Assembly: GCA_041489925.1 (NCBI GenBank)
Contig: JBGPSD010000001.1
Span: forward strand, 4,930-68,929
Direction of reading: 5' to 3'
From: Candidatus Nanoarchaeia archaeon
GTDB lineage: Archaea > Nanobdellota > Nanobdellia > Woesearchaeales > ARS49
DNA length: 64,000 nucleotides
Both the position numbers and the translations under genes were made by a program. The notes beneath the pieces are model-generated. The model made no database searches, was not told the origin of the DNA, and was given only the letters and a program-made list of their open reading frames with translations. Positions 19,462 to 51,048 of the stretch are shown piece by piece. Every line of letters starts with the position of its first letter. Position 1 is the first letter of the stretch.

Positions 19462-19607
19462 TGCTTTGCCTGAGCCTATCGTGATTTAAAAGCCTTGCGG
19501 GAACAAACGCAAAGATATTTTTACCCCCACGCAGTAGTTAAAACAGAAAGATTTATATAGGGGTTAATACTAACCTGACAGTAGTAACATTATTGGGGTG
19601 GACTAAA

Positions 19608-20621
19608 ATGAATAAGAACACTAATTACAATCGACGCGATTTCCTTAGGTATATGGGCAAAGCAGGAGCAGGAATGATACTCCTTGCGCCAATACACGCA
19701 ATTACAGGATGCAATGACTCTGGCAAAGACAGCAGCTATGCGCCAGCGCCAGGGCTCGCAAGCAAGTTTGATGTTCTTGAAACAAATGTTGACGGCCTGA
19801 AATACAAGCAGGACGAACAGCCGCCTTTGCAGACAAATCTGCGCCACTACTCCAATATTATTGTCAATCCTAAAGAAGACATTACTGACGCAATGGTCGG
19901 TATGAGGCTCACAAGCCCTACAGGCAAGGTTGACTGGCAGTTTTACTCGCCAAGTCTTAACTTCACAAAAGACATTGGACTTGCAACACCTCCTTTTGTT
20001 TTCCCTGTCAAGAACGGACCTAATGGAAATTACAAGCTTGAATGGCTTGTGAAGAAAGGCAGCGAAGAGGACGTGCTTGTCGCGCTGGAACCAAATGTGG
20101 TCTGGAATGGCAAGCAGGTCGCAAGCACACTTTACGCATCTGAGGCAATTGACTATCTTAACAGGCTGTTCCAGTTCGGAGCAAACCCTGGAATCATAAA
20201 TATTGTCGGCGACACAGCACCTGCAAGCGACATTGTTGCAGCAACAGAAGTATCAAACCGCTTCATTGCTGACGCAAAGGCAAACTACGGCTACACAGCC
20301 CCTGTTGTTACAGGAAAGCTCGCGAGCGAAGTTGCTTCACTGCAGGGCAGCAATGGATTTGCAGTCGGGCAGTATGGAATCAACCAGGCGGTAAAGGCAC
20401 TCTGGGACGGCGTTGGAAAAGTCCTTCCTCCGGGATGCGGGCTTATCCAGACAGCTGAACTTGCAGACGGCAGTGTTTACCTGATGGCTTCTGGCTCAGA
20501 TGACCTGAAAGTCAGGCAGGCTAGCCGCGCACTCGCAACGCACGATTTGTACAACATGAACGCAAGCGCACTCAAGATCACAGGGACAACCCTGACTGAC
20601 ATTGCTGTGGCGCCTGCATGA
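19608..20621 (+). CDS. secreted protein with twin-arginine signal and lipobox-like Cys; S-layer-type C-terminal region
   Basis: NRRDFLRYMGKAGAGMILLAPIHAITGC; IVGDTAPASDIVAATEVS motif. Confidence 0.5.
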   Translation: MNKNTNYNRRDFLRYMGKAGAGMILLAPIHAITGCNDSGKDSSYAPAPGLASKFDVLETNVDGLKYKQDEQPPLQTNLRHYSNIIVNPKEDITDAMVGMRLTSPTGKVDWQFYSPSLNFTKDIGLATPPFVFPVKNGPNGNYKLEWLVKKGSEEDVLVALEPNVVWNGKQVASTLYASEAIDYLNRLFQFGANPGIINIVGDTAPASDIVAATEVSNRFIADAKANYGYTAPVVTGKLASEVASLQGSNGFAVGQYGINQAVKALWDGVGKVLPPGCGLIQTAELADGSVYLMASGSDDLKVRQASRALATHDLYNMNASALKITGTTLTDIAVAPA

Positions 20622-20629
20622 GGTAAAAA

Positions 20630-22291
20630 ATGAAAAAGCTTGCTTTATTCCTTGCAATTTTGTTCGCAATACCTGCGGTTTTCGCAGTTGACTTGTCTAA
20701 TTATCCCTCTTTTTTCAGCGAGGTTTCTGTTGTGGTCGGCGACAATGCGACAACTCTTGATGTTGTCAGCGTCAACACAATAGTAAACTCACTTAACGAG
20801 CAGGGAATCCAGAACAGCATAGTCCTTGCAAGCGAAATAAGCAACATCACAGGAAGGAACATAATCAGCGTCGGAAAGAACAGCATCACAACGCAGATCA
20901 CAAACAACAGCATCAGCGTTGCAAACGGAAACGCCCGCATCAAGCTTTATGACAATAACAGCACAGTCCATATTGCCGCATTTGGAAACACTGCAGATGA
21001 CACAAGGAAGGCAGCTTATGTGCTTGCAAACTGGCACACATTCCCGCTGCAGACATCTGACATAGTTGTTGGAGGCACTCTCCAGAACATCACATTGTCA
21101 AAATACATCCCGCTTATTGACTATTCCTGCAACAATCAGACATATGGCTATGGCCGCAACTGGTCACAGCCGTGCGAAAGCACTTACCTGTTGCAGTATT
21201 TCCCTGTTATCACTGTTCAGCCGCCTGTCACACCGCCTGCAAACCAGACCGATGTAAACCAGACAGGGGGCAATCCGATAGCCCCAACACCTGGAGCTGC
21301 ATTCAGCGTTTCGCAGATTTCAACACTTGGCTCCTCTTCACAGAAGCGCGGAGATAATGTCAGCACGCAGTTCACAGCGCAAAACACAGGAACTGTTGCA
21401 CTGACAGGATTCACTTTCAGCGGAATTGACGCAAAATACAAGCTTAACTTTACAGGCATCCCTGCAAGCCTTGCTTCAGGGCAGACAGCCACAATAACAT
21501 TGAACGCATATGTCCCGCTTGACCTTGACGCTGTCGACAGCGACTGCAACAAGAAAGCAATGAGCATAGGCACACTGACAGTCAGCACCAGCCAGAACGC
21601 AAGCGCAGCACAGGAAGTAAAGATGCAGGCTGAAAACCAGCTCTCAATACTTTCAGTCTACGCAAAGATTGCAGGAGGGCAGAAGAAAGAAATCGAGTCA
21701 GGTTTTGCCGACGTTTACGCAAATGATGATGTTGATGTCATAGTTGAGCTGAAGAACCGCTTCAGCGACAATGACGACCCGATGATTGAAGCAGAAGTCA
21801 GCGCAACAGGCGACACTGATGAGCTTGACCTTGACGACAGCGACAATGTTGAGATAGACGCTGACGATGAGGAAGAGGCAACACTCAGCGGCACTGTTGA
21901 AGATGATGCAAAGGGAAGCATAAGGCTCATCCTGACTGCAAAAGGAGAGGACGAGAACGGCGCACTGTACTGTGAACAGTCAGTTGCAAGGTTCAATGTC
22001 CTTGGAACAACCCGCACAGTCACACAGCAAAACAAGACTCAGCCGATAACATTCATACCGCTTGAGCCTACAAAGCCTGTAGCAAAGAATCAGACTGTCC
22101 AGCCACAGCCAGAGCCAAGGCAGGAAAGCGTTGACGTAGTCGCGCCGACTGCAGAGGTTAAGAGCACAGGGTTCAAGAACAGCAACAGCTATGCAATGCT
22201 GCTTGGCTTGGTCATACTCGTGCTTGTAGGAGTGCTGGCAACAGAAATCTGGGTGCTCACACGCAGGCGCAAGTACATTGACCAGCTATAA
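20630..22291 (+). CDS. S-layer-type surface protein with C-terminal TM anchor
   Basis: Signal peptide, then VDLSNYPSFF..VVVGDNATTLDVVSVNTIV (S-layer N-domain signature); acidic stretch; C-terminal TM plus RRRK. Confidence 0.6.
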   Translation: MKKLALFLAILFAIPAVFAVDLSNYPSFFSEVSVVVGDNATTLDVVSVNTIVNSLNEQGIQNSIVLASEISNITGRNIISVGKNSITTQITNNSISVANGNARIKLYDNNSTVHIAAFGNTADDTRKAAYVLANWHTFPLQTSDIVVGGTLQNITLSKYIPLIDYSCNNQTYGYGRNWSQPCESTYLLQYFPVITVQPPVTPPANQTDVNQTGGNPIAPTPGAAFSVSQISTLGSSSQKRGDNVSTQFTAQNTGTVALTGFTFSGIDAKYKLNFTGIPASLASGQTATITLNAYVPLDLDAVDSDCNKKAMSIGTLTVSTSQNASAAQEVKMQAENQLSILSVYAKIAGGQKKEIESGFADVYANDDVDVIVELKNRFSDNDDPMIEAEVSATGDTDELDLDDSDNVEIDADDEEEATLSGTVEDDAKGSIRLILTAKGEDENGALYCEQSVARFNVLGTTRTVTQQNKTQPITFIPLEPTKPVAKNQTVQPQPEPRQESVDVVAPTAEVKSTGFKNSNSYAMLLGLVILVLVGVLATEIWVLTRRRKYIDQL

Positions 22292-27622: not shown

Positions 27623-28075
27623 ATGGCGCTTGACGAAACAAAACTGCCTGTGAAAATAAGGCAGACAAGAAGGGCTAGAATCTTCTGGTATCTTCTCATC
27701 ATCGGAATTCTTGCAGGTGCGTATTTTTTGAGCGGCTGGCCCAGGATAGGCGCAATTGCGCTTGCGGCGCTAATATTGATCATCGTCGAAATAACACGCA
27801 TAGTCAACGCAGTCATCATCGACGATGCAAAATTGACGCTGAGTTCAGGGCTCCTTAACGTGCACACTATCACGGTTTATTACAGCGAAATCACAGACAT
27901 AAAGATTTCCCAGAACCTATGGGAAAGGATTCTAAATTATGGCAAAATCTACGTGAACACATCTGGGCGCACTGAGTACGAGCTTGTGGAGCGCAACATC
28001 CCCCGCCCGCACAAGGTAAGGGAATTAATCGAACAAATAAGGCATACGCACATCCGCGACATAAGAAAGAAGTAA
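27623..28075 (+). CDS. membrane protein with bacterial PH (bPH_2/DUF304) domain
   Basis: Two TMs, then YSEITDIKISQNLWERILNYGKIYV. Confidence 0.6.
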   Translation: MALDETKLPVKIRQTRRARIFWYLLIIGILAGAYFLSGWPRIGAIALAALILIIVEITRIVNAVIIDDAKLTLSSGLLNVHTITVYYSEITDIKISQNLWERILNYGKIYVNTSGRTEYELVERNIPRPHKVRELIEQIRHTHIRDIRKK

Positions 28076-28387: not shown

Positions 28388-28497
28388 GCGGTAAAGCATT
28401 CTTTTGAATATTCTTTGACATTGCGGGTTTGTCAATAAATCTGATTGGGAGAGATTACACAAAGCGACATTTAAATAGGTAGAACACGTAGAAAGGT

Positions 28498-28914
28498 ATG
28501 ATGCCGAACACAGCAATATCAGAGATGAGCAGGGCACAACATGCCCAGATCATTGAAAATGGAATTGTGTTAGACAGAATGCTGTTTGCTCCGTTAACGT
28601 TGGATAGCATACCCACAATTGAACGTCAACTTCAAGAATTAAGAGAACAAACAGGTTGCGAATATGTGGTTGTACCAGTAGGTCAACCATACGGCGGGCC
28701 TAAAAGACCAATGGCTCTGCCCAGAGAAGATATCGATGCTGCTCACCGCGCTTATCAGGACGAATTGAGGGGCGTATCGCCAGAAATTGGAAGAGTGTAC
28801 GATTTACAATCCGAAAGAGAACGACTCAAAAAGGGCCGTCCCACGTTCAACCCTGCGCATTACCCATTAAAATTTCGTGGTTTTTTAAGTTCGCATTACC
28901 GCAGACAGCGATAA
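28498..28914 (+). CDS. hypothetical protein
   Basis: 138-aa ORF; no recognised motif. Confidence 0.45.
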   Translation: MMPNTAISEMSRAQHAQIIENGIVLDRMLFAPLTLDSIPTIERQLQELREQTGCEYVVVPVGQPYGGPKRPMALPREDIDAAHRAYQDELRGVSPEIGRVYDLQSERERLKKGRPTFNPAHYPLKFRGFLSSHYRRQR

Positions 28915-28999
28915 AAGACGCCGTTTCTCGAACCATCCGAAAGACTCTGCCTTCTTGTACACTTAAAAAAGCGAACTTTCTCGTATGTTCAAAGAATTC

Positions 29000-29431
29000 T
29001 CACTGCGCCCAGCTTGGAAGCATAGGTCCGATAAACGGCCAGACATAAGGCACTGCGACGACAAGAGCCGCGACCATTGCGCTGTGGAACCAGGTCTCTC
29101 TAAGCCCAAGGGACATTCCGCCCATACTTGCCTTGATTGCAGCGCTGACTCCGTGAATCTTGACCATTGTTATTATTCCGACAATAATCTGCAACGTTAT
29201 TGCAGACATGTATGGTATGCCCTGAAGGAATGAGAAATTCTGCAAAACCCACGGCGTGTTCATCGTCACGAAGCAGGCAATGATTGCGAAAACAACAGCG
29301 TGAATGCCGTGCCCGAACCTGTGCGTCGGAACAGTGACGTCGCGGTGCAGGAGAATAATCTCGTAAATACCAATAATAATGCCCGCGATAATTGGCGGCA
29401 CAATCATCAATGCCGCTGTTGCTGCTGCCAT
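29000..29431 (-). CDS. 4-TM membrane protein with His-rich loop (HRFGHGIH)
   Basis: ATG at 29431; TATA-like tatatatta about 20 nt upstream (leaderless). Confidence 0.55.
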   Translation of the reverse strand: MAAATAALMIVPPIIAGIIIGIYEIILLHRDVTVPTHRFGHGIHAVVFAIIACFVTMNTPWVLQNFSFLQGIPYMSAITLQIIVGIITMVKIHGVSAAIKASMGGMSLGLRETWFHSAMVAALVVAVPYVWPFIGPMLPSWAQ

Positions 29432-29481
29432 AACTACGCAGGGCAAATGCTAATATATAAACGTTTTCTTTGAAAAAAATC

Positions 29482-29958
29482 CTATTTGGGTTTTTCCCTA
29501 TGTATCGTCGCCCTTGGCGTCTTGTCAGTATTCAACTTGTTAAGCAGGATGTTCTCAATATTCAGTGCGGTTGCAACCCCGTCCGCCTTGGAGTCAGCAT
29601 TATCGGTGTCATACATCACATTGTGAACATCTGAACCATTGGGGTACTTGTTGGCAAGTTCCTCAATTCTTGCTGCATAAGGCGCAGGAACGTCCAACCA
29701 GGATGTCTTGCCGCCATATTCAAATTTGATGTAACTGCGGCTGTCCTCGCTCGGAAAAACACGCTTGGCGCCATTCCAGAAAATGTCTGCGCCAAACTTT
29801 GCTGTTTCCTTGCCTGCACACCACAGGTAGCCCATCGTATCAGGAAAACCATGGTAACAGACTGAAATCGTGAAAGCGCAGGCTGCGGCAATTGCTGCCT
29901 TTTTCTTTTGATTCCAAACCGCGGCTGCTGTATTTTTTAATTTTTGAATAAGCGGCAT
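29482..29958 (-). CDS. N-terminally anchored small protein with Asp-rich DTDNADSKADG loop
   Basis: TM AAIAAACAFTISV; SD-like gagggg upstream; abuts the upstream stop. Confidence 0.5.
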   Translation of the reverse strand: MPLIQKLKNTAAAVWNQKKKAAIAAACAFTISVCYHGFPDTMGYLWCAGKETAKFGADIFWNGAKRVFPSEDSRSYIKFEYGGKTSWLDVPAPYAARIEELANKYPNGSDVHNVMYDTDNADSKADGVATALNIENILLNKLNTDKTPRATIHREKPK

Positions 29959-29959
29959 T

Positions 29960-30514
29960 TTATTCCCCTCTCGTCTTGTGGATTGTGCATTTGCCGTACT
30001 GGGCCTCAGCAGGCTTAACCTCAACCGGCTTCGGCGCAAGCCCCATTTCCTGCCTTGAAATGTGGCCGTCTTTTATAGCTTCGTACATTGAAAGCTTTGC
30101 GCTCCTTGCCTGGTCATAAAGCGTTTTTGTTTTCGGCAAATTGTCAATTATAAGGTCGTATTGGATTGCGGCGCGTGATGCTGTCTCGACATCATCGCAG
30201 GAAACAACAGTACCGTCAATAAAGCGGATTTCGTTCTTGTTGTTGATTGCGTAAGGCGTGTTCTGAACTTCATCGCCAGAAGCCTGTTTTCCCTGAACTC
30301 TTTGTACCTGTGCAGTCGGGTTGCGGTAAAAGAAGTGCCTTGGGAACGGTCCTGTAAGCATGTAAGCAGCGCCAATCAATGCGATTGTTCCGGCAGCAAG
30401 CTTGGTCATAGGACCAAGATTGTCAAAATAATCGCGTATGGACTGCTGAGGATTAGTATTCTGTGCGCCCTGAGGCGCTCCCCCTTGTACGGGAACTGGT
30501 TGTGGATTTGGCAT
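29960..30514 (-). CDS. Pro/Gln-rich N-terminus, one TM, globular C-domain; hypothetical
   Basis: ATG 30514 preceded by a perfect SD AAGGTGAT; TM LAAGTIALIGAAYML. Confidence 0.55.
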   Translation of the reverse strand: MPNPQPVPVQGGAPQGAQNTNPQQSIRDYFDNLGPMTKLAAGTIALIGAAYMLTGPFPRHFFYRNPTAQVQRVQGKQASGDEVQNTPYAINNKNEIRFIDGTVVSCDDVETASRAAIQYDLIIDNLPKTKTLYDQARSAKLSMYEAIKDGHISRQEMGLAPKPVEVKPAEAQYGKCTIHKTRGE

Positions 30515-30646
30515 AGTTATCACCTTTGTTGTCACTACGTAGTGAATACTACTATATAAGCTTTTCGGTTACTCAATATAGAGGGGCATTCGCCAAAATA
30601 TTTATATACACAGTTGACGAACGCAGACTAAAAGAGTTGACAGACT

Positions 30647-32890
30647 ATGGTACGCGCAGGACTCCAGAACATTCCGGTTCTTAATTCGTTGCCTGACATC
30701 CCCCAAATGTATGCCAGCAACCCGGGATTCAGCTTCTTTGTTGACCTCATACTCCTTTGCGGATTGTTCGCTGCGCTTCTCGCGCCTCTCGGCTCAATGA
30801 TTTTTGAAAGGGGCGAAGGCGGAGTGGGTGAAGGAAAGAAAGGCGCAGGCAGGAAGTTCGGCGCAATTCTCGGAATCATCCTCGGCGCATCTGCAGCGTT
30901 CGCACTGCGCGCAGCAGGAATAACCCTGTTCCAATACTGGCTGACAACAGTCGCATCTGCCGCCCTGCTTGGGGCAGTACTTTTCGTCATGCTGAAAAAG
31001 CTCCATGTTCCACCAATTGTCGCAGGGCTAATCTGCGCACTGCTGGCGTGGATGATTATGGACTCGTGGTTTGTGACATCAAACAGCGAGACAGTAAGGA
31101 ACCTGTTCGGCTTCCTCTCCCTTCTCGCGCCAATACTCATCTTTTTGTTCATAATCTGGATGTTTTTACCAAAGTTCAGAAGGGCGCCAGGACCAGAACC
31201 TGGACCCGGGCCTGAACCAGGACCAACCCCACCAGAACCTGGACCACCCGAGCCAGGACCAGAACCCGGACCGCCAGGACCTATTCCGCCAAACCCAGGA
31301 GAACGACTTGGACAGGATCTTAACAACATCAATGTGAATGTCAATACTGCAAGCAATGCCAGCAATCAGATTGATATCAGAAACGCAAACATCCTGCAGG
31401 CATTGAACCTTGCAATTGCAGACGCTGAGAATGCAATCAAGTCAGCAGAGCAGGGCGACTCCAAGAACACAGAAGCGCACATCACTGACCTTATTGTAAG
31501 GATTGAATCAATAATCAAGGCAATAAACGGCCAAAAGACATTTGTCACCAAGATAATGGGCCTGAAAGCAGCCATAGAAGCTATTCTCAAGAAGTATTAC
31601 AGCGAAATAAGGACCACAATGGTCCAGTACGGGCAGATGGTTGAAGCAATTGAGAGGGAAGTACAGACATTTGCAGGAAGGCCTGAGCAGGCAGAACTGC
31701 TTGTGAAGCTCGGGATACTGAAGCGCGACCTCCAAATCCTTGAGAATTCATTGAAGCAATTAAATGATATAATTTTGCGCCTTGAAAAGCACCTCCTTGT
31801 GCTTAAAGACGCACAGCTGCAGTCGCTTTACGATGATGCGATAAAGAGCATAAATGAAGTGGACATTAATGCCATGAAAAATTCAATCAGGGCGTTCATC
31901 AGAAAAGAGGGCGCTGCAAGAACGCCAGAGGAGGCAGAGGCGCTCCGCCGCGAAGTGATTCAACTGATTGAGTGGCTTGAAAACAAGCTGGGCCAGATAA
32001 CTGCCAAGTGCCAGGCATTCACTGCCGCATCCAAATTCAACACGGCGCAGGTCAAGGAAATCCAGGCAGAGATAAAGCACTGGAAAGAGATTTTCGAAGG
32101 GCTTGTCAAAAAGGCACTTGATGCTGTTGAAAGCGGCATTTTGGCATTGCAAGCTGCGATTAACGAGAGAAGAGCGGCAATCGCAGGAAGGGCCGCTGTG
32201 CCGCCTGTCCCACCGCCTGCAGCAAGGGCTCAAGCGCCTGCGCAAAGACCTGCCAGACGCGCGCCAGCCCCTGTCCAACCGCCTGCAGCAGCAGTTATTG
32301 TTCCTGAAATTGATGAGATAATGAGGAACATCGAAAAGCAAAGGCGCCTCCTCGCCAGCCTCGCAGCCCAGACACGCGAGGTTATCAACAGGATTATCTT
32401 TGCAGAATCAGTAAAGAGAAAGAGCGGCCAAAAGACAATAGACGCAAAATCAGAACAGGCATTTTTGGACGCGATACAAAAGGCTGTTGAAGAGGCAAGA
32501 TTTGATATTGATGCTGCGAGTGTTTCACAGAGAATAATCAATGAGATTCACACTGCAGCAGAGCATGTCCGCATAAGGATAATGATGCAAAACAGCCCTG
32601 CAGAATCAAGGACACTCAGGGAGCTGGAACAAAACCTCAAGACATTTGAGAAATACGAGCAAACAGCAGTCCTGCCTGTGCTTGTGAACCTGCAGGAAAC
32701 AATCAACAAGGAAGTTATTGAGACGCTCAGAAAGAAAAAGACAGTGATGGTGTCAGGCCAGATAATCACAGATGCAGTCAAAAACAAGCTTCTCAGGCTT
32801 GCAGACCAGCTTGATGCAGCCATCAATGCGCTTGCAGGAATAACTGTGCTAAGAAGGCCTATGCCGCCCGTGCGACCGGCGCAAATTTAA
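30647..32890 (+). CDS. large protein with five predicted N-terminal TM helices, PGPE-repeat linker and ~560-aa helical/coiled-coil region
   Basis: 747-aa ORF; 5 hydrophobic helices in the first 180 aa; PGPEPGPGPEPGPTPPEPGPPEPGPEPGPPGP; heptad-like helical sequence; internal Ala/Pro-rich linker. Confidence 0.8.
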   Translation: MVRAGLQNIPVLNSLPDIPQMYASNPGFSFFVDLILLCGLFAALLAPLGSMIFERGEGGVGEGKKGAGRKFGAILGIILGASAAFALRAAGITLFQYWLTTVASAALLGAVLFVMLKKLHVPPIVAGLICALLAWMIMDSWFVTSNSETVRNLFGFLSLLAPILIFLFIIWMFLPKFRRAPGPEPGPGPEPGPTPPEPGPPEPGPEPGPPGPIPPNPGERLGQDLNNINVNVNTASNASNQIDIRNANILQALNLAIADAENAIKSAEQGDSKNTEAHITDLIVRIESIIKAINGQKTFVTKIMGLKAAIEAILKKYYSEIRTTMVQYGQMVEAIEREVQTFAGRPEQAELLVKLGILKRDLQILENSLKQLNDIILRLEKHLLVLKDAQLQSLYDDAIKSINEVDINAMKNSIRAFIRKEGAARTPEEAEALRREVIQLIEWLENKLGQITAKCQAFTAASKFNTAQVKEIQAEIKHWKEIFEGLVKKALDAVESGILALQAAINERRAAIAGRAAVPPVPPPAARAQAPAQRPARRAPAPVQPPAAAVIVPEIDEIMRNIEKQRRLLASLAAQTREVINRIIFAESVKRKSGQKTIDAKSEQAFLDAIQKAVEEARFDIDAASVSQRIINEIHTAAEHVRIRIMMQNSPAESRTLRELEQNLKTFEKYEQTAVLPVLVNLQETINKEVIETLRKKKTVMVSGQIITDAVKNKLLRLADQLDAAINALAGITVLRRPMPPVRPAQI

Positions 32891-35800
32891 TCTCCCCTTT
32901 GCAATAATCCATCCAGTCTTTTCTCGAAGCACTCTTTGGCGCCAGCTTAAACTCGCTTAGTGCTTCCTCAAACTTATCCTCATCGTGTGTTTCGCTTGCA
33001 ATCAATGCAAGGCACATTCCAATATTGAAAGAGCAGTTCTGCTTTGCAGCATCAAATGGAACACCCTCGCGCGCCACCCTGTAGTTCCTGCACGCATACT
33101 GAAGCTTCCTGATTTTTGCATTGCCAGAAAGCCCTGTCGAAGCATACAGCGCTTTGTCTGCGTAGTCTGCTATTGAGCGTGCTGAGTTGTAATCATCGTG
33201 CAGCCTTGAAATCCTGTTCTCAAGCTCATCCTTGTCATTTTCAATGGCGCGGATTTGGTCCCACAATGAGGCAACATAGCCCAATGGCAGCCCTGACTGG
33301 AGCTCGCAAAGCAGGGCGTATTCCTTTGGATTGTTCTTCGCAAATGACGTCCTGCCAAGATACATCCTGCTTACCGCGACAAGTGTCCTGAGCTCGCGGT
33401 TCGCTCGCGTATTCACCAGTTCGCATGCATTACTGCCGATAACCTCCTTCAGGTTGTTGATGCGCGTTGCATAACCGCCGCCGTGCAGCATCGCATCATA
33501 AGCTTCAAGCAATGGCTCCTTGAAATTATCATAAGCCTTGTTTTTCTCAATTCTTGCCCGCATGCCTTTCAGCACTTTTTCAAAGCGCGCTCCTTTCGGG
33601 ATATTGACCCTTGGCGCCTTTACAGGATGGTCTGATGCCCAGTTGCGCACAATCGCGACAAGGTCGTCAGGCGCAGCTGCATTCCTGCGAATGCGCAATA
33701 TTTCATTTGCTTTCTTTTGCAATTCCTGCTCATTCTTCCCAATCTGGAGGCGATAACCCTTTTCCATTGCGTTGCGCTCAGCGTCCTTCCTTATGAGCGC
33801 AGCAGCGTGTGACTTGTCCTTTTCTGCAAGGGCTTTTGCGTGCGCTTCCTGCAACTTTTTGCTATTTGCAGCCAAAGCATTATCTGCTTTCTCCAGCTTC
33901 TGTTCAAGCTCAGTCACTTTTGCAGCAAGCTCAGTGTCTGGCTCTCCTTTTTCTTCCCTTGCGCGCTTAAGGTCTGCTTCATACTGCTTGCGCGCATCGC
34001 CCAGCTGTTTTTCAAAGTCTGTGCGCTGTTTACCAAGCTCTTTGCCATGGTCTTCGCGCATAGATTTCAACCGTTCTTCAAGATCAGTGCGATCCTCCAC
34101 AGCCTTGCCATACTTTTGTTCTGAGGTTTGGCGCCTCTGTTCGAGTGCAGCATATTCCCTTACTTTTGCAGCAAGCTGTTCATCATAGCCCTTTCGCACT
34201 TCTGTAAGCTGGAGTTCAGCTGCACTCTGGACTTGCCCAATCCTTGTTTGGGCTGTCGCATAATCGCCTTTCAGTTTGTTGTTTTCTTGTTCAAGAGCCG
34301 CACGCTGTGCTTCAATTTCTGCAATACGCTTCTCAATTTCACCTGCTCCTGGCTCATCGCCTGCCTTCAGCGCCTTAGTTTTGAATTCTACCAGTACTTT
34401 CATGGGGTCTGTTTCAACCAGTTTGTTCCCAAACCTTGTTTTCAGATAGGGAGCAACAGATTCAATGATTTTCGTAACTGCGCCAAACATTTTGTCTGCA
34501 CGCCGTATATCCTGCGTTTGGGTTTCCAACTGAGATTTGTAGCCGTCAATTTCCTTTTGTTTGGCAGCGATTTCGGTATCATACGTCTGTTTGTCAGTGT
34601 CGCGCGCCTGCCTTAGCTTGGATGCGTCTGGCTGGCCTTTTCGCAGTCCCTCAAGTTCTTTGTTTGCGGTTTCAAGGCGTTGTTCAAGCTGAGTGTATGC
34701 TGCTTCTTTTCTTTCAATATTGCGCTGCAGGTTCAATGCTTTTTCTTTTTCCTTGTCGCGCTCTTCGCGTGCGCTATCAACATCATCATTACGGGAATTC
34801 AATTGCGTGACTTGCTCGCTGGTGAGCCTCTCAATTTCTGCATCATGTTCCTTTTTGTCAGCTTCGCGCTCCTTTCTTTGCCCTTCCTGCATTTCCGCAG
34901 CAGACTGTTCATATGCAAGACGCTGCCGCTCAAACGCTTCGTACTGCTGCTTCAACTTATCATCAGATTCGGGTTTAAACTCGCCGCTTTGGACAAGCCC
35001 TGCAACCTGTTCCAGTATATCGCGGGGATTTTCAGCCTGAATTCTGCCGCCGCATATTGCCTTCAGGCGCTTGGCAAGAGGCTCAACTGCCTGCTCATAG
35101 AGCGATTGCATTGATTCAAACTCCTGATTTTTAGCACCAATTTGCTGCTCGAGCTCGCTGATCCTTGCCTTTGAAGAAAGCCCCTCCTGCGCCTTGGTCC
35201 TCAACTCATCAATAGTTGCGCCCAGACCAGTGAACCATTTCAAGTATCCAAGGACCCTCTCAACAGGCTTTTTTCCTTTGAATTCGGGATGTTTCTCAGT
35301 CACATACCCATCAAGATCCTTGACAAGAGTAAAAACATCAACGTGATCCATCAGGTAGGCATCTGCGTCATCTGCATCCTTCTTTGCAACTGCAACTCTT
35401 TCAGTGGCCCACCGCTTTACTTTTCCAATAATCCTCATTGACCTGCTTACAATCGCTTCATTCTCAGATTCAAGCTGCTCCTCTATTTTTTCAGCGGCAG
35501 CCAGTTGCACTTCAAGTTCCTGAATCTTTGCTTCAAGTGCCAAAGGCCTTGTTCCCTGCGCGTCTTTAGGCGGTTCTTCAGCAGGCGAGGAATGGGATGA
35601 GTCTGATGTACTGCCCGGAATTGGGGGAGGAGCGTCTGCATCTGGCGGATGGATGGGAATGCGCGCACCGCTGAAAATCTGTGTCTGTTCTGTAGCAGGG
35701 TTCTCATGAAGCTTGAAGTCATGTTTTGTTTCCTTCCGGAACTCATCTGTCTCAGGATGCCAGACAAACTGCAAGTGCGAACCTGCCCTGCCGTCAAAAA

Positions 35801-36668
35801 CATAAACGCCTACCGGCGAGTGCGGAAACTTGTGGGCAACTTCGTCAAAAATCTTGCTTGGTCTGTACTCTGAATCGCGCGTCTCAATTTCACTCTGCCC
35901 AACTGGATTTTTCTGCCCAGCGATAATCATGTAATATACGCCGTCGATAAGTTTTTCCTTTGGAAGAATTCTTGAATTGCATATAATCACGCCTGACTCC
36001 TTTCTGTCCGAAGAGAACGTGCTTTGCAGTTGTTCATCTTCATCGATTGATTTTCCGCTGCGGTAAGCGAGCAGCGGCGCGTCTGCTGCCGCTGTGATTT
36101 CATCAAGCCCTGATGCTGATAAAACAACCCCCTTCAGCTCAATTCTTTGCCAGTCGAGATAGCTGTCTGATGGAAGCGCCTCTATGTGGAAGATATTGGT
36201 TCCCATTACCTTGACTTTTATTTCCTCGCTCCTTGCAGGCATCATTGCCTTTCCAAGGTCGCGGTAGAATTCCCTGAACCTCGGGACAAGAATCCCTTCC
36301 ACAGGGATGCCTCCTGCCTCAACAGCGCCGACATACTTCCTGAAAGGCACGCTGGCAGGATTGCCGCCAGGGTCAACTGCGCGAAGGCTGCCAAGGTCTG
36401 CAGGGTTCATTATTCCTTTCTTGCTCCATTCATTTGCGTGGACATTAAACTCGTCACAAAGCAATGCCCATGCGCCTTCATCAAATTCCTTGAGCTCTGC
36501 AGGGCTCATTTGCGAGCCAGGCGTGTTTCCTATAAGCGCGATTAAGTCCAGTTTTTTGTCTGTTTCCTTGCTGACTGCCTGCGGAAGCTTTGAGAAAAGA
36601 TTCCTGAGAAAATCAATGTCTCCATTCGCATCATTCACTACCGCAAACACTGCAGGCGCTGTCATCAC
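32859..36668 (-). CDS. giant coiled-coil protein with degenerate metallophosphoesterase-like N-domain and helical C-domain
   Basis: 1269-aa uninterrupted ORF; ~650 aa of charged E/K/Q/A/L-rich heptad-like sequence; no signal peptide or TM seen. Confidence 0.85.
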   Translation of the reverse strand: MMTAPAVFAVVNDANGDIDFLRNLFSKLPQAVSKETDKKLDLIALIGNTPGSQMSPAELKEFDEGAWALLCDEFNVHANEWSKKGIMNPADLGSLRAVDPGGNPASVPFRKYVGAVEAGGIPVEGILVPRFREFYRDLGKAMMPARSEEIKVKVMGTNIFHIEALPSDSYLDWQRIELKGVVLSASGLDEITAAADAPLLAYRSGKSIDEDEQLQSTFSSDRKESGVIICNSRILPKEKLIDGVYYMIIAGQKNPVGQSEIETRDSEYRPSKIFDEVAHKFPHSPVGVYVFDGRAGSHLQFVWHPETDEFRKETKHDFKLHENPATEQTQIFSGARIPIHPPDADAPPPIPGSTSDSSHSSPAEEPPKDAQGTRPLALEAKIQELEVQLAAAEKIEEQLESENEAIVSRSMRIIGKVKRWATERVAVAKKDADDADAYLMDHVDVFTLVKDLDGYVTEKHPEFKGKKPVERVLGYLKWFTGLGATIDELRTKAQEGLSSKARISELEQQIGAKNQEFESMQSLYEQAVEPLAKRLKAICGGRIQAENPRDILEQVAGLVQSGEFKPESDDKLKQQYEAFERQRLAYEQSAAEMQEGQRKEREADKKEHDAEIERLTSEQVTQLNSRNDDVDSAREERDKEKEKALNLQRNIERKEAAYTQLEQRLETANKELEGLRKGQPDASKLRQARDTDKQTYDTEIAAKQKEIDGYKSQLETQTQDIRRADKMFGAVTKIIESVAPYLKTRFGNKLVETDPMKVLVEFKTKALKAGDEPGAGEIEKRIAEIEAQRAALEQENNKLKGDYATAQTRIGQVQSAAELQLTEVRKGYDEQLAAKVREYAALEQRRQTSEQKYGKAVEDRTDLEERLKSMREDHGKELGKQRTDFEKQLGDARKQYEADLKRAREEKGEPDTELAAKVTELEQKLEKADNALAANSKKLQEAHAKALAEKDKSHAAALIRKDAERNAMEKGYRLQIGKNEQELQKKANEILRIRRNAAAPDDLVAIVRNWASDHPVKAPRVNIPKGARFEKVLKGMRARIEKNKAYDNFKEPLLEAYDAMLHGGGYATRINNLKEVIGSNACELVNTRANRELRTLVAVSRMYLGRTSFAKNNPKEYALLCELQSGLPLGYVASLWDQIRAIENDKDELENRISRLHDDYNSARSIADYADKALYASTGLSGNAKIRKLQYACRNYRVAREGVPFDAAKQNCSFNIGMCLALIASETHDEDKFEEALSEFKLAPKSASRKDWMDYCKGEIKFAPVARAA

Positions 36669-36756
36669 TGGCAGGTTATAGGTCTGGTAGTTTTAAAGCT
36701 GGTGAAATCAGGCTTAAAAAGAAAGGTATTTAAACCTGAAAAGGAAGCAACAGATT

Positions 36757-38399: not shown

Positions 38400-38405
38400 T
38401 TGAAA

Positions 38406-38924
38406 ATGAAGATTCAACTCGAACATTCAGAGGCGCCTGAACAGGCAGTTCCCGAGGATATCGCAAAGACCATTCTGGCCCGCTTTGGGCTTTTGCCGAG
38501 GAAAAAAGACGGCAGTGCCCAGATGCACAAGCTCCTTCTCGAGCTATCAGAGCGCAAGAAGGCTGCCAATAGGGAGAAAAAGCCTGAGCTGGCAGTGATG
38601 CCCGTTGAGGATATGGGCTCTTTCGCAGGCATAAAGCGCCAGACAATGTACGAGTATTTGCACCGCTGGCTTGACCTGAATATCCTCAAGAAAACCAGCT
38701 TTGTGAACAATGGAAAAGTTGTCATCGGTTATGAGCTGAACGGCACAAACCTGGAAGGGGCGTTCAGAAAGGCAGAATCGACGATAAAAACCCATTTGGA
38801 TGGCTCTTTCAAGCTTATCGAACAGCTCCAAAGCGAGATAAAGAAGGAAAAGCTCAGGGCTGGGGCTTCTGAACAGCCTGAGGAGCCTGCATCCAGTGTG
38901 ACAACAGAGAATTTAGGCCAATAA
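38406..38924 (+). CDS. wHTH DNA-binding protein, hypothetical
   Basis: VEDMGSFAGIKRQTMYEYLHRWLDLNILKK helix-turn-helix-like; coiled-coil C-terminus. Confidence 0.5.
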   Translation: MKIQLEHSEAPEQAVPEDIAKTILARFGLLPRKKDGSAQMHKLLLELSERKKAANREKKPELAVMPVEDMGSFAGIKRQTMYEYLHRWLDLNILKKTSFVNNGKVVIGYELNGTNLEGAFRKAESTIKTHLDGSFKLIEQLQSEIKKEKLRAGASEQPEEPASSVTTENLGQ

Positions 38925-39423
38925 CAACTTCTTTTGCCTGTTTCTGCCTGAATTTGGGCTCCAATTGCACAAATGCCTGCCCTTCGTCATACTTTTTCAG
39001 GATTGGGACCCCTTTCTCGACGAGGTTTGTGATAACGCCTGAAATAAGCGTGTCAGAGATATTGAGCTTCCTGGCAAGCTGTTTGTAGCTGACAAAAGGG
39101 ATGCCCTCTCCGACGATATAAAGCGCCTGGAAGACCTCCTGTTCGCGCTTTGTTAAAGGCTGGATTTCGATTTTTTGCTCTGCTTTTTTGCCCTCGACAA
39201 GAAGGAAAAGCTCCTCTATGCGGGCGTGAAGCTTGTCGAGCTTTTCCTCGACAGAATGGATGTATTCGTGGTTTGCCTGGAGCTCGTTTGTGTTCTCGTT
39301 AATCGCTGCCCTGTGGTCGTCGAGCTCCTCCCTGAATGCGTCGAAAATTGAGTTCATGGCAAGCTCTGCGCCTGCCTCGTCCCTGTGTACTAACACTGCT
39401 TGTTTTGACTTCAAACTTTCCAC
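38854..39423 (-). CDS. coiled-coil plus C-terminal HTH protein
   Basis: LTKREQEVFQALY...SYKQLARKLNISDTLISGVITNLVEKGV; GTG start at 39423 or ATG at 39357. Confidence 0.55.
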   Translation of the reverse strand: MESLKSKQAVLVHRDEAGAELAMNSIFDAFREELDDHRAAINENTNELQANHEYIHSVEEKLDKLHARIEELFLLVEGKKAEQKIEIQPLTKREQEVFQALYIVGEGIPFVSYKQLARKLNISDTLISGVITNLVEKGVPILKKYDEGQAFVQLEPKFRQKQAKEVVIGLNSLLSHWMQAPQAVQKPQP

Positions 39424-39491
39424 CCCAACTATCCTCGATAACTGTGCTGCTTGTGATTGGCTCCTTTAAAAGGATTTTTGTGCTGGAAACC

Positions 39492-40202
39492 CTATCTTCC
39501 AACAGCCTTTTTCAGGTGGCCTCCGACCATAAGCAGTTTTTCCTTTCCTTCGTGAATAACTCCTATTGCAGACTCATCCTCAAGCTCCTCTAGGAGCCTG
39601 TAGAAGCTGCTCTTGCTGGCAAGGCCCTGCTCCTCGACGAGCATCTCCCTGAGCTGCAGCGCCGATATCTTGCCGTATTTCGTGATCATGCTCATGATAA
39701 GCCCCTTCAGGTATTCCTTCGAGTTCCTGGTTATCCGCTGGACAATCTTGTCCCTCAAAGCCTGTGTTCTCGACGGTGGAGGGGCAATGTGAGGTAATGC
39801 CTCGACTTCGTGCCTTATCTGCTGAACGGCTGGAGCTGCCTTCTGGTGCTCCAAATGGCGCAATTTGTCCTCTATTTGTCTCATACGCTCTACCATGGTG
39901 TCGAAATCGTAATACGCGTCAATAATGCGCTTTATTGTCTCAGAATCCTTTGGAACATCCCTTAATTCCGTTTGCATCCTCTCGATAAGCTGCTTCTGCC
40001 TGACGATTTCCTGCTCGTAGTCGTCGAGGTCGTGCTGCTGCTCCTCTATGAGCTGGTTTTGGCGGGCTGTCTGCTGCTGGAAATAAGCAAGCCATTGGTA
40101 TATCGCGTTCGTGTCCTGCTTGACATGCGCAAAGCTGTCCTTTAAAGCGCGGTCAAGCTGCGCGACCTTGTCGTCAACCTCTTTTCCGAAAAGCCACCCC
40201 AT
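39492..40202 (-). CDS. coiled-coil plus C-terminal wHTH protein
   Basis: ATG 40202 lies 23 nt downstream of tttttata (leaderless); C-terminal ISALQLREMLVEEQGLASKSSFYRLLEELEDESAI. Confidence 0.6.
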   Translation of the reverse strand: MGWLFGKEVDDKVAQLDRALKDSFAHVKQDTNAIYQWLAYFQQQTARQNQLIEEQQHDLDDYEQEIVRQKQLIERMQTELRDVPKDSETIKRIIDAYYDFDTMVERMRQIEDKLRHLEHQKAAPAVQQIRHEVEALPHIAPPPSRTQALRDKIVQRITRNSKEYLKGLIMSMITKYGKISALQLREMLVEEQGLASKSSFYRLLEELEDESAIGVIHEGKEKLLMVGGHLKKAVGR

Positions 40203-40269
40203 GGCAAAGTGAAAACGAGGGCAGGTATAAAAAGTTTTCCAATACCCTATTTTGTCCTCTTTTCTGCTG

Positions 40270-40725
40270 TTTTTGGGACGGTCCCAGGACCTTCCCATGA
40301 CGTTCCCAGGACTGTTTTGGGACTATCAGCTGCCTTTTGGGAACGTTTTATCGTCGGTAAAACGTCATTCCCACATTCCCACTTGGGACTATCTGGGAAT
40401 GAGCTGAGACGGAGGCGGGAATATCCTGGGAATGAGTGGGAATGATATGGGAATATCCATCGTCGGAAGGGCATTACCTCCTGGGACTATCTGGGAATGA
40501 GAATGAAGTATTGGGAATGAAGCAATACGGATACGGGACTGCTGCGAAAAAGTTTGGGAATGGGAACGAGATTGGGAACGTTCCCAGCTGGGACTATCTG
40601 GGAATGAGAATGGGACTGGGAACGTCGACAATGAGCACATTGTCGAGCGTGCTCGCCAACTCCGTTGGCGACATGATATTGGGACAGTCCCAGTGGGAAC
40701 GAGAGTGGGAATGACTGGGAATGAG
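40270..40725. repeat. dense strand-biased array of GGGAAT/GGGAAC/GGGACT motifs with three perfect 20-bp direct repeats
   Basis: tgggactatctgggaatgag at 40384, 40482 and 40589; CTGGGAATGAG at 40393, 40426, 40491, 40598 and 40714; about 24 GGGA(A/C) on + and about 8 inverted. Confidence 0.9.
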
Positions 40726-46115: not shown

Positions 46116-47171
46116 ATGCCATTTGACCCGCGAAAGCACATCATAAGACCTCCTGCAGCAGGTGCACCTCAGCCGCCAAGGCCATACCTACCGCAAAAGC
46201 CGGCAAAAGTGGTATTGCCCGGCAATTCTTCGCGCCGTCTTGCTGCTGTTCCAGGCAAGATTGACGTTGTCCCATTCACAGAATTCCCTGATATTGTTGT
46301 GCTGAACTTTTCCCAGTATGAAGGAATTATGCCCCTTCTAAAAAGGCACATTTGCGCACGTTCTGAGCTGGAGGATGCAGTCAACAATATAATCCTCAAT
46401 TTGCTTGTCAATTCACCGCAAAAAGTTGTAAAGCCTGGAAAACTGGATTATAATCACTTTGAGAAACAGTACAACCACGACCAGCTGATGGGATATTTGA
46501 ATACAATCACCTGCATTGATGTGGTTTTCAGCAAGTCCCCTTCAAAGATTGGAAATTTCACAAGAAAAGAGACATATCTTATTGAGAAAATCCAGGATGC
46601 AGAACGCCCATTGAAAGGAAAATACCATCTTGCATACATAGACGACAACTACAGGGATTCGTTTGCCAAAGCTGTTGAACACAAAAAAGAACAAATCAGG
46701 GAAGCTCTACTGGAACCATATGTATCACAAATGGAGACCATCGAATGCGAAATAGAAAGAAAGGTCAAAGAAATGGGCGAGGCAGGACTGAAAGAATACG
46801 AATTTGTGGAAAACACACTCCATAACATTTTGCGCGTAGAGGCACAAGGAATCGATGATGCAAGGGGAGAACAACAAATACTTGAAGCGATAAAATACAT
46901 GCAATCCAAGCAACCACCAGGGCCTTTTGATGGAAAAATCATTGACCTGCTGAATATCGCACACCACTGCTACCGGATCCAGCGCAGCCAATCACCAGAA
47001 GTAGAGGCAGAAATGCGCAAAATCCCAAGCTATGAGCAAATTCTTGAAAGCGTTGCGTCATGCCTGGAGCCAAAAGGGGTATTAATCCTAAACCCTGCAC
47101 AGGAACGCACTTTCCAGGGGCTCAAATACCTCGGCAATTTCGGCAAGGTCGGGATGTATCAGAAGGTGTGA
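46116..47171 (+). CDS. hypothetical protein
   Basis: 351-aa ORF, Pro-rich N-terminus; no motif recognised. Confidence 0.55.
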   Translation: MPFDPRKHIIRPPAAGAPQPPRPYLPQKPAKVVLPGNSSRRLAAVPGKIDVVPFTEFPDIVVLNFSQYEGIMPLLKRHICARSELEDAVNNIILNLLVNSPQKVVKPGKLDYNHFEKQYNHDQLMGYLNTITCIDVVFSKSPSKIGNFTRKETYLIEKIQDAERPLKGKYHLAYIDDNYRDSFAKAVEHKKEQIREALLEPYVSQMETIECEIERKVKEMGEAGLKEYEFVENTLHNILRVEAQGIDDARGEQQILEAIKYMQSKQPPGPFDGKIIDLLNIAHHCYRIQRSQSPEVEAEMRKIPSYEQILESVASCLEPKGVLILNPAQERTFQGLKYLGNFGKVGMYQKV

Positions 47172-50163: not shown

Positions 50164-51048
50164 ATGCTGACACTAGAGGAAAGAAAAGCTGTTCAAGCAC
50201 AACTGGATGAGCTTCAACCACGTATCAAAGCGCTGAAGCAGAGACTTAACGAGTTAAACGACCAGAAGGAAAAGGCTTTCCAGCAGCGCAATCCTGTCGG
50301 CAAGGAGATTTCTTCTTTAATACACGACATAAAGCAGCTCAAGCAGGGGCGGGATTCCTTGACAGATGAAGTCAAGAAGCTCAAGGAGAACCGCACAGGG
50401 CTGAATGAGATAATCAAGAAGAAGATTGAGGAAGCCAAAAAGCTCAATGCAGAGAAGAAAAAGGCTACCGCAAAGCTCGGGCTGAAAGAAAATCCAGGCA
50501 ATCTGAAGATGATGATGGACAAGCTTGAGCACAGAATAGAGACAGATGTGATTTCTTTTGAAAAAGAGAAGGCAATAATGAAGGAAATCAAGGAATTGAA
50601 GAAGCGCTATAACGAGGCAAAGGCGTCAAGCGCTGTCTGGGACGCTGCGCACCAGATGAGCAAGGACATTGATACCATGCAGGAGCAGGCAGATGACATT
50701 CACAGGCAGATTCAGCAAAAGGCAAAATTAAGCCAGCAAAAGCACGAACAGCTTGTTGATGAAAGCAGGAAGGTTGACGGGCTTCGCGGCAAGGGAGACA
50801 CGTTCACAAAGGACATAGGTCAAAGAAAGTCAGAGATTGCAACGCTCTCAGAAGAGCTTGGAGCGCTTTTGAAGCAGGCAGGCGAGCTGAATACAAAGCT
50901 TTTTGCCGAGCGAAAGGAAAAAGAAGCCGCAACCGTCAATCAAAGGCAGAAGAAATTCTCAGAGAAATTGGCAGAAGTCAAGCAAAAGTTCGCGAAAGGC
51001 GAGAAATTAACCACAGAAGACATTATTATAATGCAGGGAGAGAATTAA
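50164..51048 (+). CDS. conserved archaeal coiled-coil protein (COG1340-like)
   Basis: 294 aa, almost entirely heptad-like K/E/L-rich. Confidence 0.5.
   Translation: MLTLEERKAVQAQLDELQPRIKALKQRLNELNDQKEKAFQQRNPVGKEISSLIHDIKQLKQGRDSLTDEVKKLKENRTGLNEIIKKKIEEAKKLNAEKKKATAKLGLKENPGNLKMMMDKLEHRIETDVISFEKEKAIMKEIKELKKRYNEAKASSAVWDAAHQMSKDIDTMQEQADDIHRQIQQKAKLSQQKHEQLVDESRKVDGLRGKGDTFTKDIGQRKSEIATLSEELGALLKQAGELNTKLFAERKEKEAATVNQRQKKFSEKLAEVKQKFAKGEKLTTEDIIIMQGEN

Follow-up and report, generated by a model that had tools for sequence, protein, structure and literature searches.

The stretch of DNA analysed (64,000 nucleotides of contig JBGPSD010000001.1, assembly GCA_041489925.1, from a Candidatus Nanoarchaeia archaeon; hereafter the window) carries near its centre two large convergent genes, one for a polytopic membrane protein of 747 amino acids (aa), here called the anchor, and one for a soluble protein of 1269 aa with a head, a long rod and a tail, here called the head-rod protein. 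The most distinctive property of the pair is that it forms a hypervariable island between highly conserved flanks, which had been missed in the preliminary description of the locus. The two genes, and the putative promoter elements read by eye beside them, are the following.

30647-32890, plus strand: anchor gene, an open reading frame (ORF) of 747 aa whose homologues adjoin the head-rod gene; polytopic membrane anchor with predicted cytoplasmic helical domains.
32859-36668, minus strand: head-rod gene, an ORF of 1269 aa; soluble head-rod-tail protein.
32859-32890: 3'-3' overlap of the convergent pair, 32 bp.
30601-30608, plus strand: putative TATA-like box TTTATATA, about 42 nt upstream of the anchor ATG.
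36691-36697, minus strand: putative TATA-like box TTTAAAA, about 26 nt upstream of the head-rod gene start.

Coordinates, strands and overlap of the two ORFs were all found as first described. The overlap was also present in relatives (loci numbered L001 onwards), measuring 32 bp in L001 and L003, 26 bp in L007 and 38 bp in L009, and the two genes abut without overlapping in L004 and L010. Both are genuine genes under purifying selection, because the ORF lengths are far beyond chance expectation, the genes are conserved in other genomes, and the ratio of nonsynonymous to synonymous substitution rates (dN/dS) against the closest relative, L001, was 0.38 for the head-rod gene and 0.18 for the anchor gene. 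The smaller ORFs listed in other frames within both genes are unsupported and are by-products of biased composition. The true start of the head-rod gene may be either the GTG at 36668 or the ATG directly after it at 36665; homologues open with MPENAVFAVV. In the 88-bp gap between this gene and the neighbouring PAC2 gene, the TTTAAAA box on the minus strand and a second box on the plus strand, TATTTAAA, were read by eye in opposed orientation (both within 36691-36734), each about 26 nt from its respective start codon, an arrangement that points to a leaderless transcript in each direction.

The family is extremely rare. Five relatives of the full head-rod protein were retrieved among 5.8 billion clustered proteins and six of the anchor, and an exhaustive HMMER search with a profile of the head returned nine proteins among 1.84 billion representatives. 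A word-indexed search with the TM-domain profile of the anchor was uninformative, yielding the single fragment P0018, probably because its prefilter was swamped by hydrophobic words; a metagenome scan with a narrower alignment gave four loci. The genomic context of all the relatives was recovered. Twelve archaeal loci, the window included, offered enough DNA for the gene order to be read (window, L001/L002, L003, L004, L005, L007, L009, L010, L013, L014, L016 and L018), and in all 12 of them an anchor homologue adjoins the head-rod gene in convergent orientation, or in an orientation that is convergent after gene fission. The pairing assumed in the preliminary description is thus not peculiar to the window. 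Adjacency was kept despite fission of head and rod (L007, probably L016), transfer of the tetratricopeptide repeat (TPR) tail to a separate gene (L005, L013), tandem duplication of the anchor (L013) and loss of the rod (L009). A short paralogous form of 524-770 aa, consisting of the head, a Pro-rich or short linker and the TPR tail with no long rod, was found in L018 (3238-4812) and L009 (7059-9371); in L018 it coexists with a 1010-aa long-rod protein that has the head and no TPR tail, and there too the anchor is adjacent. The wider synteny is common to all the archaeal loci, with PAC2 on one side and a four-transmembrane (4-TM) protein, n148, and L35Ae on the other.

The contrast between the pair and its surroundings was evident from the amino acid identities across genomes.

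PAC2: 81-99%.
Neighbouring proteins n174, n189 and n268: 81-99%.
4-TM protein n148: 63-94%.
Head-rod protein: 25-37%.
Anchor: 23-51%.

The flanking DNA of L003, L004, L007 and L010 matches the window at 75-92%, whereas about 31.1-36.7 kb of the window gave no alignment to any of these four, with the exceptions of the TM region of the anchor, the head in L003 and a short L007 stretch over the first rod module. Two small single-TM proteins of 191 aa and 158/185 aa, encoded divergently from the anchor gene, also evolve fast, with 31-54% identity for the first (n191) and 28% for the second (n185) between genomes whose PAC2 proteins share 90-99%. Family scans of these two proteins gave no match, and it is possible that they belong to the same variable module as extra components.

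29482-30535, minus strand: two small, fast-evolving single-TM proteins, divergent from the anchor gene.

Substitution rates against L001 located the divergence more precisely. The synonymous rate dS was similar across the region (0.02-0.21), and the nonsynonymous rate dN was 0.08 for the head-rod gene, 0-0.02 for most neighbours and 0.036 for n148. Within the head-rod gene the values were distributed as follows.

Head: dN 0.13-0.19, dS up to 0.6, dN/dS 0.3-0.7.
Rod modules, C-domain and TPR tail: dN low, dS similar to the flanks, dN/dS 0.03-0.14.

The range of 0.3-0.7 covers head and rod, and the head is the fastest-evolving part of the protein in this comparison with the closest relative. Constraint is strongly patterned along the gene, in contrast to uniform drift, and the raised dS of the head hints at allele exchange.

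Some observations were made at the edges of the island. The 148-aa 4-TM protein (29000-29446, minus strand) has no Pfam match and stands at the island edge in all loci, the distant L009, L013 and L016 among them. The interval between L35Ae and this gene (28400-29000, compared with L001 17714-18796) differs in gene content and forms another small variable spot next to the island: an aspartate-semialdehyde dehydrogenase gene lies there in L001 and L004, and an unmatched 138-aa ORF (28498-28914) in the window, with a bPH_2-domain gene (27623-28075) beyond L35Ae. On the other flank, three adjacent proteins of 174, 189 and 268 aa (38400-40298) are 81-100% identical across the lineage; two of them have a coiled-coil N-terminus and a C-terminal helix-turn-helix, with weak Pfam matches to DUF7147 and HTH_11 only.

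The anatomy of the anchor was derived from hydropathy, alignment and an AlphaFold2 model, and its parts are listed below.

30647-31171, plus strand: 5-TM domain (aa 1-175), from hydropathy and alignment; the best-conserved part of the anchor, predicted N-out/C-in.
31175-31300, plus strand: Pro/Gly/Glu-rich spacer (aa ~177-218), from sequence; non-helical in the model, with a predicted local distance difference test score (pLDDT) below 50.
31295-32194, plus strand: helical domain D1 (aa 217-516), modelled as an elongated multi-helix bundle at pLDDT 75-90.
32195-32287, plus strand: Ala/Pro-rich hinge (aa 517-547), from sequence; predicted disordered.
32288-32842, plus strand: helical domain D2 (aa 548-732), modelled helices at pLDDT 50-70.
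32843-32887, plus strand: Pro/Arg-rich C-terminal tail RRPMPPVRPAQI, from sequence.

The five TM helices first proposed for the anchor correspond to five hydrophobic segments (aa 30-48, 74-92, 98-116, 119-137 and 156-174), which were kept in every homologue and were modelled as membrane helices at aa 28-54, 67-89, 98-118, 123-144 and 148-173. Across nine diverse sequences, residues Y22, S29, F30, D33, G76, G80, W98 and T100 of this domain are invariant. The run of PGPE-type repeats that had been reported after the last helix is present verbatim at aa ~177-218; in homologues this spacer is swapped for (VPP)n or Gly-rich runs, with about 45 residues of VPP repeats in L003. The hinge, too, was recovered as the exact string AAVPPVPPPAARAQAPAQRPARRAPAPVQPPAAA, and homologues also have a Pro/Ala-rich segment at that position. 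Domain D1 (modelled helices 217-268, 272-294, 297-340, 346-384, 388-403, 407-422 and 427-516) is conserved out to L010_562, with 30% identity over 516 aa. Domain D2 occurs in some homologues only: its profile hidden Markov model (HMM) matched the window, L001, L003, L004, L007, L014 and L016, and anchor forms of 557 and 562 aa do not have it. Most homologues end in a Pro- and Arg/Lys-rich C-terminus, L003 not being among them.

The overall pLDDT of the anchor model was 65 and its predicted template modelling score (pTM) 0.39, obtained on a shallow alignment that limits the confidence for D2 and for helix packing. The model consists of bundles of helices of 16-90 residues and the heptad periodicity is patchy, so that the long heptad coiled coil at first attributed to this protein was not borne out; the anchor would be better described as a polytopic membrane protein with helical bundles than as a giant coiled coil. 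A Foldseek search of the model against the PDB gave nothing significant, the weak matches being generic long bundles (ClyA-family toxins, the trypanosome haptoglobin-haemoglobin receptor, IKK/TBK1 scaffold domains and the ULK1-complex core).

The side of the membrane on which these bundles lie decides between two views of the anchor. By our reading of the sequence, loop 1, loop 3 and the segment after the fifth TM helix together carry 10 Lys/Arg residues, compared with 2 on the opposite side, and the bias is similar across homologues; because of the positive-inside rule, an N-out/C-in topology with cytoplasmic C-terminal helical domains is predicted. The alternative is that the spacer and bundles stand outside the cell as a host-attachment stalk or adhesin, the head-rod protein being unrelated to them or acting inside. 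Rigid Pro-rich spacers that follow a TM helix directly are reminiscent of linkers that span the cell wall, such as TonB, and the anchor has its Pro-rich spacer at such a place, in L003 with the VPP repeats. The weak fold matches include extracellular bundles (the haptoglobin-haemoglobin receptor and the ClyA-family toxins), hypervariability is typical of exposed proteins, and DPANN archaea depend on host contact (PMC11291902). Nevertheless, the charge bias across homologues favours a cytoplasmic C-terminus, the fold matches are not significant, the most conserved part is the TM domain and not an exposed tip, and the equally variable head-rod protein has no export signal. A surface structure is regarded as quite unlikely.

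For the head-rod protein the following parts were distinguished.

35661-36668, minus strand: α/β head (aa 1-336), from the AlphaFold2 model; degenerate metallophosphoesterase-like motifs.
35514-35660, minus strand: Pro/Ser-rich linker (aa 337-385) with a conserved PPP[IVLM]P motif.
33714-35513, minus strand: segmented coiled-coil rod (aa 386-985), from heptad periodicity, charge and composition.
35223-35366, minus strand: rod-interrupting module 1 (aa 435-482; ...DHVDVFTLVKDLDGYVTEKHPEFKGKKPVERVLGYLKWF), from an HMM; dN/dS 0.06-0.12.
34371-34499, minus strand: rod-interrupting module 2 (aa 724-766; ...FGAVTKIIESVAPYLKTRFGNKLVETDPMKVLVEF), from an HMM.
33111-33677, minus strand: family-specific helical C-domain (aa ~998-1186; LVAIVRNW...KEYALLCELQSGLP), from an HMM.
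32889-33164, minus strand: tail of two TPRs (aa ~1169-1260), from alignment; two repeats and a cap with a conserved Cys.

The protein shows no hydrophobic segment and its N-terminus reads as having no signal peptide, in agreement with its first description as a soluble protein. The rod (13.8% E, 11.8% A, 11.2% K, 8.7% L and 7.8% Q) has a strong 3.5-residue periodicity in segments; its length and sequence vary strongly among homologues, with alignment gaps, it is replaced by a Pro/Lys-rich linker in L009_770, and self-BLAST of the rods gave no long internal repeats. The rod is interrupted by a module of about 45 residues, comprising a hydrophobic helix, a turn of HPEF/NPEL type and a second helix. 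An HMM built from five seeds found one to four copies in every rod-bearing homologue searched, including two in the window; dN/dS against L001 was 0.14 around aa 751-850, and the L007 DNA matched module 1 at 80% of nucleotides inside otherwise unalignable sequence.

The end of the protein, first described as a helical C-domain of about 270 aa, is indeed helical, but it is not a single domain: a family-specific domain at aa ~998-1186 is followed by two TPRs. The HMM of the family-specific domain matched the window, L001, L003, L004, L007, L009 (1e-15), L014 and a separate 359-aa gene in L005 (7e-6), and its dN/dS against L001 was 0.03-0.13. Among ten family tails, eight matched Pfam TPR_2 (PF07719; best E 1.2e-11) and six PF00515, and the family tail profile matched consensus TPR structures with E values from 1e-10 to 4e-42. 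At the family level, then, the profiles identify the tail as a genuine TPR module; the window's own tail aligns with the family, although it is the most degenerate copy and alone falls below the Pfam threshold. TPR domains typically bind short peptides, and the Pro/Arg-rich tail of the anchor may, speculatively, be a candidate ligand of this module.

Both proteins and several homologues were scanned against families in Pfam, NCBIfam, PDB sequences, PADLOC and PHROG. The matches were all below threshold and of the kind that coiled-coil regions usually give, so that assignments to SMC/Rad50, PspA, EzrA, tape-measure, S-layer and defence proteins were rejected, and the S-layer, SMC-like or tape-measure homology that had been named as a competing identity was not found in these scans. 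For a viral tape-measure the sole PHROG match was phrog_10613 (E = 0.0075, over the coiled coil), and the pair lies among housekeeping genes (PAC2, L35Ae, rRNA and ribosomal proteins). An S-layer or secreted surface protein was rejected, since the head-rod protein has no hydrophobic N-terminus or TM segment and no S-layer or Ig-like Pfam domain. PspA, Vipp1 or ESCRT-III, suggested by the JGI name of the homologue P0010, found no support, as Pfam scans of the window protein and five homologues gave neither PspA_IM30 nor Snf7. The earlier statement that neither protein could be assigned to a known family holds for the whole proteins, and no longer for the TPR tail and the metallophosphoesterase-like head.

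The head was modelled from five sequences (pLDDT 66, pTM 0.68) and starts β-α-β-α, with a β-rich C-terminal half and a helical insertion at aa 56-112. Its N-terminus, AVVNDANGD...LIALIGNTPG, has NDANG in place of the DxHG and GNTPG in place of the GDxxDRG of metallophosphoesterases. Distant relatives come closer to these motifs: P0013 and P0014 have SDLHG and P0013 has LIGDTPG (GD), which are the canonical motifs I and II, and at the expected position of motif III the short forms have GRHD (L009_770) and GWND (L018_524). The complete set of five motifs (DxH, GDxxDR, GNH[DE], H, GHxH) was found in no family member, and the window protein has no GNH[DE]. In the weak Foldseek lists, metallophosphoesterases dominate the PDB entries (purple acid phosphatase, many Vps29 chains, TT1561, YfkN and CpdB), and calcineurin-like phosphoesterase, SbcD and 'DNA repair exonuclease' entries recur in BFVD. 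The head is probably a degenerate, non-catalytic metallophosphoesterase-like fold, its membership of that superfamily being unproven. A further relative, the 415-aa P0015 of locus L020 (E 2.6e-7), has SDLRG and GN and a short coiled coil; its locus is bacterial, lying between MurA-like and Ffh-like genes with no anchor alongside, and the head family is therefore not strictly archaeal.

Two further explanations were considered. The first is a DNA-handling machine, either SMC/Rad50/SbcC-like or a fusion with Mre11, acting in chromosome segregation or repair. Weak matches of the coiled-coil regions point in this direction (SMC_prok_B, E = 0.018; Rad50_Sulf, E = 0.27; and a PHROG SbcC-like match, E = 0.007, for P0013). 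However, a regular-expression search found a Walker A (GxxxxGK[ST]) or a Walker B (hhhhD[DE]) motif in neither of the two proteins, the SMC_prok_B score was 12.8 bits compared with a family cut-off of 567, the rod has no CxxC zinc hook and gave no Pfam hinge or hook match, the head does not have the nuclease metal ligands, and the partner is a membrane protein. The initial view that these are not SMC or Rad50 proteins was correct, and a DNA-handling machine is effectively refuted and extremely improbable. The second is a conflict module, that is, an antiviral or anti-mobile-element sensor-effector or a host-manipulation device, whose variability would reflect an arms race and whose head would derive from an Mre11/SbcD-type nuclease. 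The divergence island between conserved flanks agrees with it, as do the highest dN and raised dS of the head (suggestive of allele exchange), the weak viral SbcD-like structural matches, and the combination of such a head with a long coiled coil, which recalls SbcCD, Mre11-Rad50 and Lamassu. On the other hand, PADLOC gave no significant match: the window proteins were unmatched, and homologues matched only LmuB (0.018) and JetC (0.026), in coiled-coil regions, for which reason an anti-phage assignment was rejected. There are, moreover, no ATPase motifs, the window protein has other residues in place of the catalytic metal ligands, dN/dS nowhere exceeds 1, and the pair occupies the same site among housekeeping genes in every genome of the lineage, whereas defence islands usually vary in presence. 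A conflict module is thus rated improbable.

The explanation tentatively preferred is a cytoplasmic scaffold tethered to the membrane, the product of a lineage-restricted module of two genes in a Woesearchaeota-type (DPANN) archaeon; somewhat less than an even chance is given to it. Taken as established are the anatomy of anchor and rod, the prediction that both lie on one side of the membrane, the constant pairing of the genes by joint inheritance at a single chromosomal site, and their common hypervariability, in which the architecture is kept although divergence far exceeds that of the neighbours. With the helical domains of the anchor predicted on the same side of the membrane as the signal-less head-rod protein, a membrane-tethered scaffold becomes physically plausible. 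In such a scaffold the head-rod protein would dock on the anchor, most plausibly through its strongly conserved TPR tail, the C-domain and the two rod-interrupting modules, and on the anchor side through the hinge, the Pro/Arg tail or the helical domains. The head, as a metallophosphoesterase fold minus its metal ligands, would serve as a binding module rather than an enzyme, and could be held up to about 90 nm from the membrane if the rod were fully extended (≈600 aa × 0.15 nm). It is proposed that the head binds a strain-variable partner, and that it diverges fastest because this partner varies between strains. Candidate cellular roles would be in division, in shape, or at the cytoplasmic face of a cell-cell contact site. 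The original suggestion that a membrane anchor and a long soluble rod resemble a cytoskeletal, division or attachment scaffold gains from the conserved pairing and the predicted same-side topology, and its functional part stays at the tentative level of the scaffold itself.

Several observations weigh against the scaffold. Regarding the head, Foldseek against the PDB and BFVD gave no match at E≤1e-3, a Pfam scan gave none even at E≤5, profile searches of the PDB found no metallophosphoesterase, and hhalign against three small phosphoesterases placed motifs I and II in register with a probability of 0.8%; the model itself is moderately confident (pLDDT 66). Regarding the linkage, the genes are convergent with separate putative promoters and are not an operon, and since the synteny of the whole region is shared by every locus, co-occurrence alone cannot separate functional coupling from inheritance as a block. 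The presence or absence of D2 does not cleanly track the C-domain of the head-rod protein (L005 has the C-domain and no D2), in a comparison for which the D2 HMM is too narrow to follow gain and loss. Regarding selection, no 100-codon window of the head-rod gene reached dN/dS above 1 against L001, so that positive selection is not demonstrated, and fast divergence of helical, low-complexity sequence can come from weak constraint alone. The points on linkage and selection are also those expected of two unrelated, weakly constrained, lineage-specific proteins that happen to be neighbours in a syntenic block and diverge by normal drift. Such a pair of unlinked neighbours is considered unlikely, given that adjacency outlasts fission, duplication, rod loss and complete sequence turnover in all 12 loci, that the island consists only of both genes and the two small membrane genes beside them, and that the globular head is also fast while short modules are under strong purifying selection.

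A more specific form of the scaffold was also considered, in which the pair, perhaps with the two small fast-evolving membrane proteins, would be the cytoplasmic scaffold of a host-contact or attachment site of the Woesearchaeota lineage, core but hypervariable. The anchor would mark the contact membrane, the degenerate-phosphoesterase head borne by the rod would engage strain-specific partner, host or viral factors, and anchor and head-rod protein would be expected to co-diversify. This form is doubtful, with a small chance of being right.

DPANN archaea have tiny genomes and are dependent on contact with other cells, and to our knowledge almost nothing has been established on the internal organisation of their cells. 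In this setting, about 6 kb is spent by a tiny-genome lineage on two proteins found essentially nowhere else, and being core, paired and hypervariable is an unusual combination for cytoplasmic proteins. The pair gives a tangible starting point for the study of a cytoskeletal or contact-site structure, or of an intracellular arms race, in an uncultured symbiont. It may also add a further case of the metallophosphoesterase fold being reused as a non-catalytic binding head, and family models could be seeded from the conserved modules newly defined here, which are the 5-TM anchor, the module that interrupts the rod, and the C-domain. The weight of the finding would be much greater if, against present expectation, the module turned out to be part of a DPANN host-contact apparatus or of an intracellular arms-race system.

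Other features of the window concern its lineage and gene content. The window carries an archaeal ribosomal operon with a partial 16S (1-1195), tRNA-Ala and 23S, and its 16S is divergent, with GCGGTAACCCCGG after the 515 region. The closest metagenome-assembled genome (MAG), GCA_964353335.1, is labelled Methanosarcinales, whereas the cluster formed by the window's LonB at ≥90% identity includes a protein that bears the name Candidatus Woesearchaeota archaeon; a binning or labelling error in the MAG is possible, and literature searches by accession for the related MAGs gave no result. None of the group-specific Methanosarcinales and ANME 16S FISH probes compared matches the window 16S, which serves as a lead only. 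NCBI places Woesearchaeota within the DPANN kingdom Nanobdellati, and a DPANN source of Woesearchaeota type is considered likely for the window. Elsewhere, a 294-aa helical/coiled-coil protein (50164-51048, plus strand) matched DUF7121 (E 2.3e-9) and weakly Laminin_II, and a 574-aa protein (13201-14925, minus strand), which has HYR and bacterial-surface Ig-like domains, is probably located at the cell surface and has a related gene at the edge of L010. Large ORFs of 448, 342, 553 and 351 aa (8601-9947, 19593-22291 and 46116-47171) have no Pfam match at E≤1e-5, which fits a poorly characterised lineage.

Among known systems, the anchor may be compared with EzrA and with TipN of Caulobacter, in which an N-terminal membrane anchor carries a long cytoplasmic α-helical domain that recruits soluble partners. 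The architecture is alike, and the homologue P0010 has a weak Pfam EzrA match (E = 0.067). The anchor differs in having five TM helices instead of one or two, with a Pro-rich spacer and a hinge in addition, and there is no significant sequence or fold similarity; here the protein is archaeal, paired with a giant rod protein and hypervariable. The head-rod protein, for its part, has the plan of Uso1/p115, golgins and myosin-II tail-type rods, namely a globular head followed by a long coiled coil in segments, broken in places, and by a short interaction domain at the end, and as in tethers of the Uso1/p115 and golgin type the rod would probably be recruited to the membrane by a separate anchor. 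No homology underlies this likeness, the sole match being a coiled-coil-level one to Pfam Uso1_p115_C (E = 0.0098) on an anchor homologue; the head is metallophosphoesterase-like and neither armadillo nor motor, and the tail is TPR. The head resembles catalytically inactive metallophosphoesterase scaffolds such as Vps29: the β-α-β-α start, a D..G ending strand 1 and a GN ending strand 2 are shared, many of the weak Foldseek matches are to Vps29 chains, and motif II of human Vps29 is also GN rather than GD. The Vps29 matches are non-significant, however, and the head is almost twice the size of Vps29, has the helical insertion at aa 56-112 and is fused to a rod. The TPR tail, which matches TPR profiles and structures at the family level, may be likened to the peptide-binding domains of Hop/Sti1, PEX5 and OGT, from which it differs by having two repeats and a cap with a conserved Cys, in a copy that is degenerate in the window.

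The nearest precedent in the literature is the DPANN coiled-coil proteins (CCPs) of type-IV-pilus loci, which are confined to cluster-2 DPANN (Woesearchaeota among them) and for which a role in cell-cell interaction was proposed (Hamm et al. 2024, PMC11291902). Compared by description, the two have in common that they are long coiled-coil proteins of a DPANN lineage. What defines the CCPs is a position next to CpaF/TadC pilus genes, together with 'nucleopore-like' or sigma-1-like predictions (PMC11291902), and no pilus genes (T2SSE/T2SSF-type Pfam) were found within ±10 kb among the called genes in L001-L013 or the 40 window ORFs scanned. Taken together, and without detectable homology, the pair appears to resemble in function both the membrane-anchored helical landmark or scaffold proteins and the head-rod-tail tethers.

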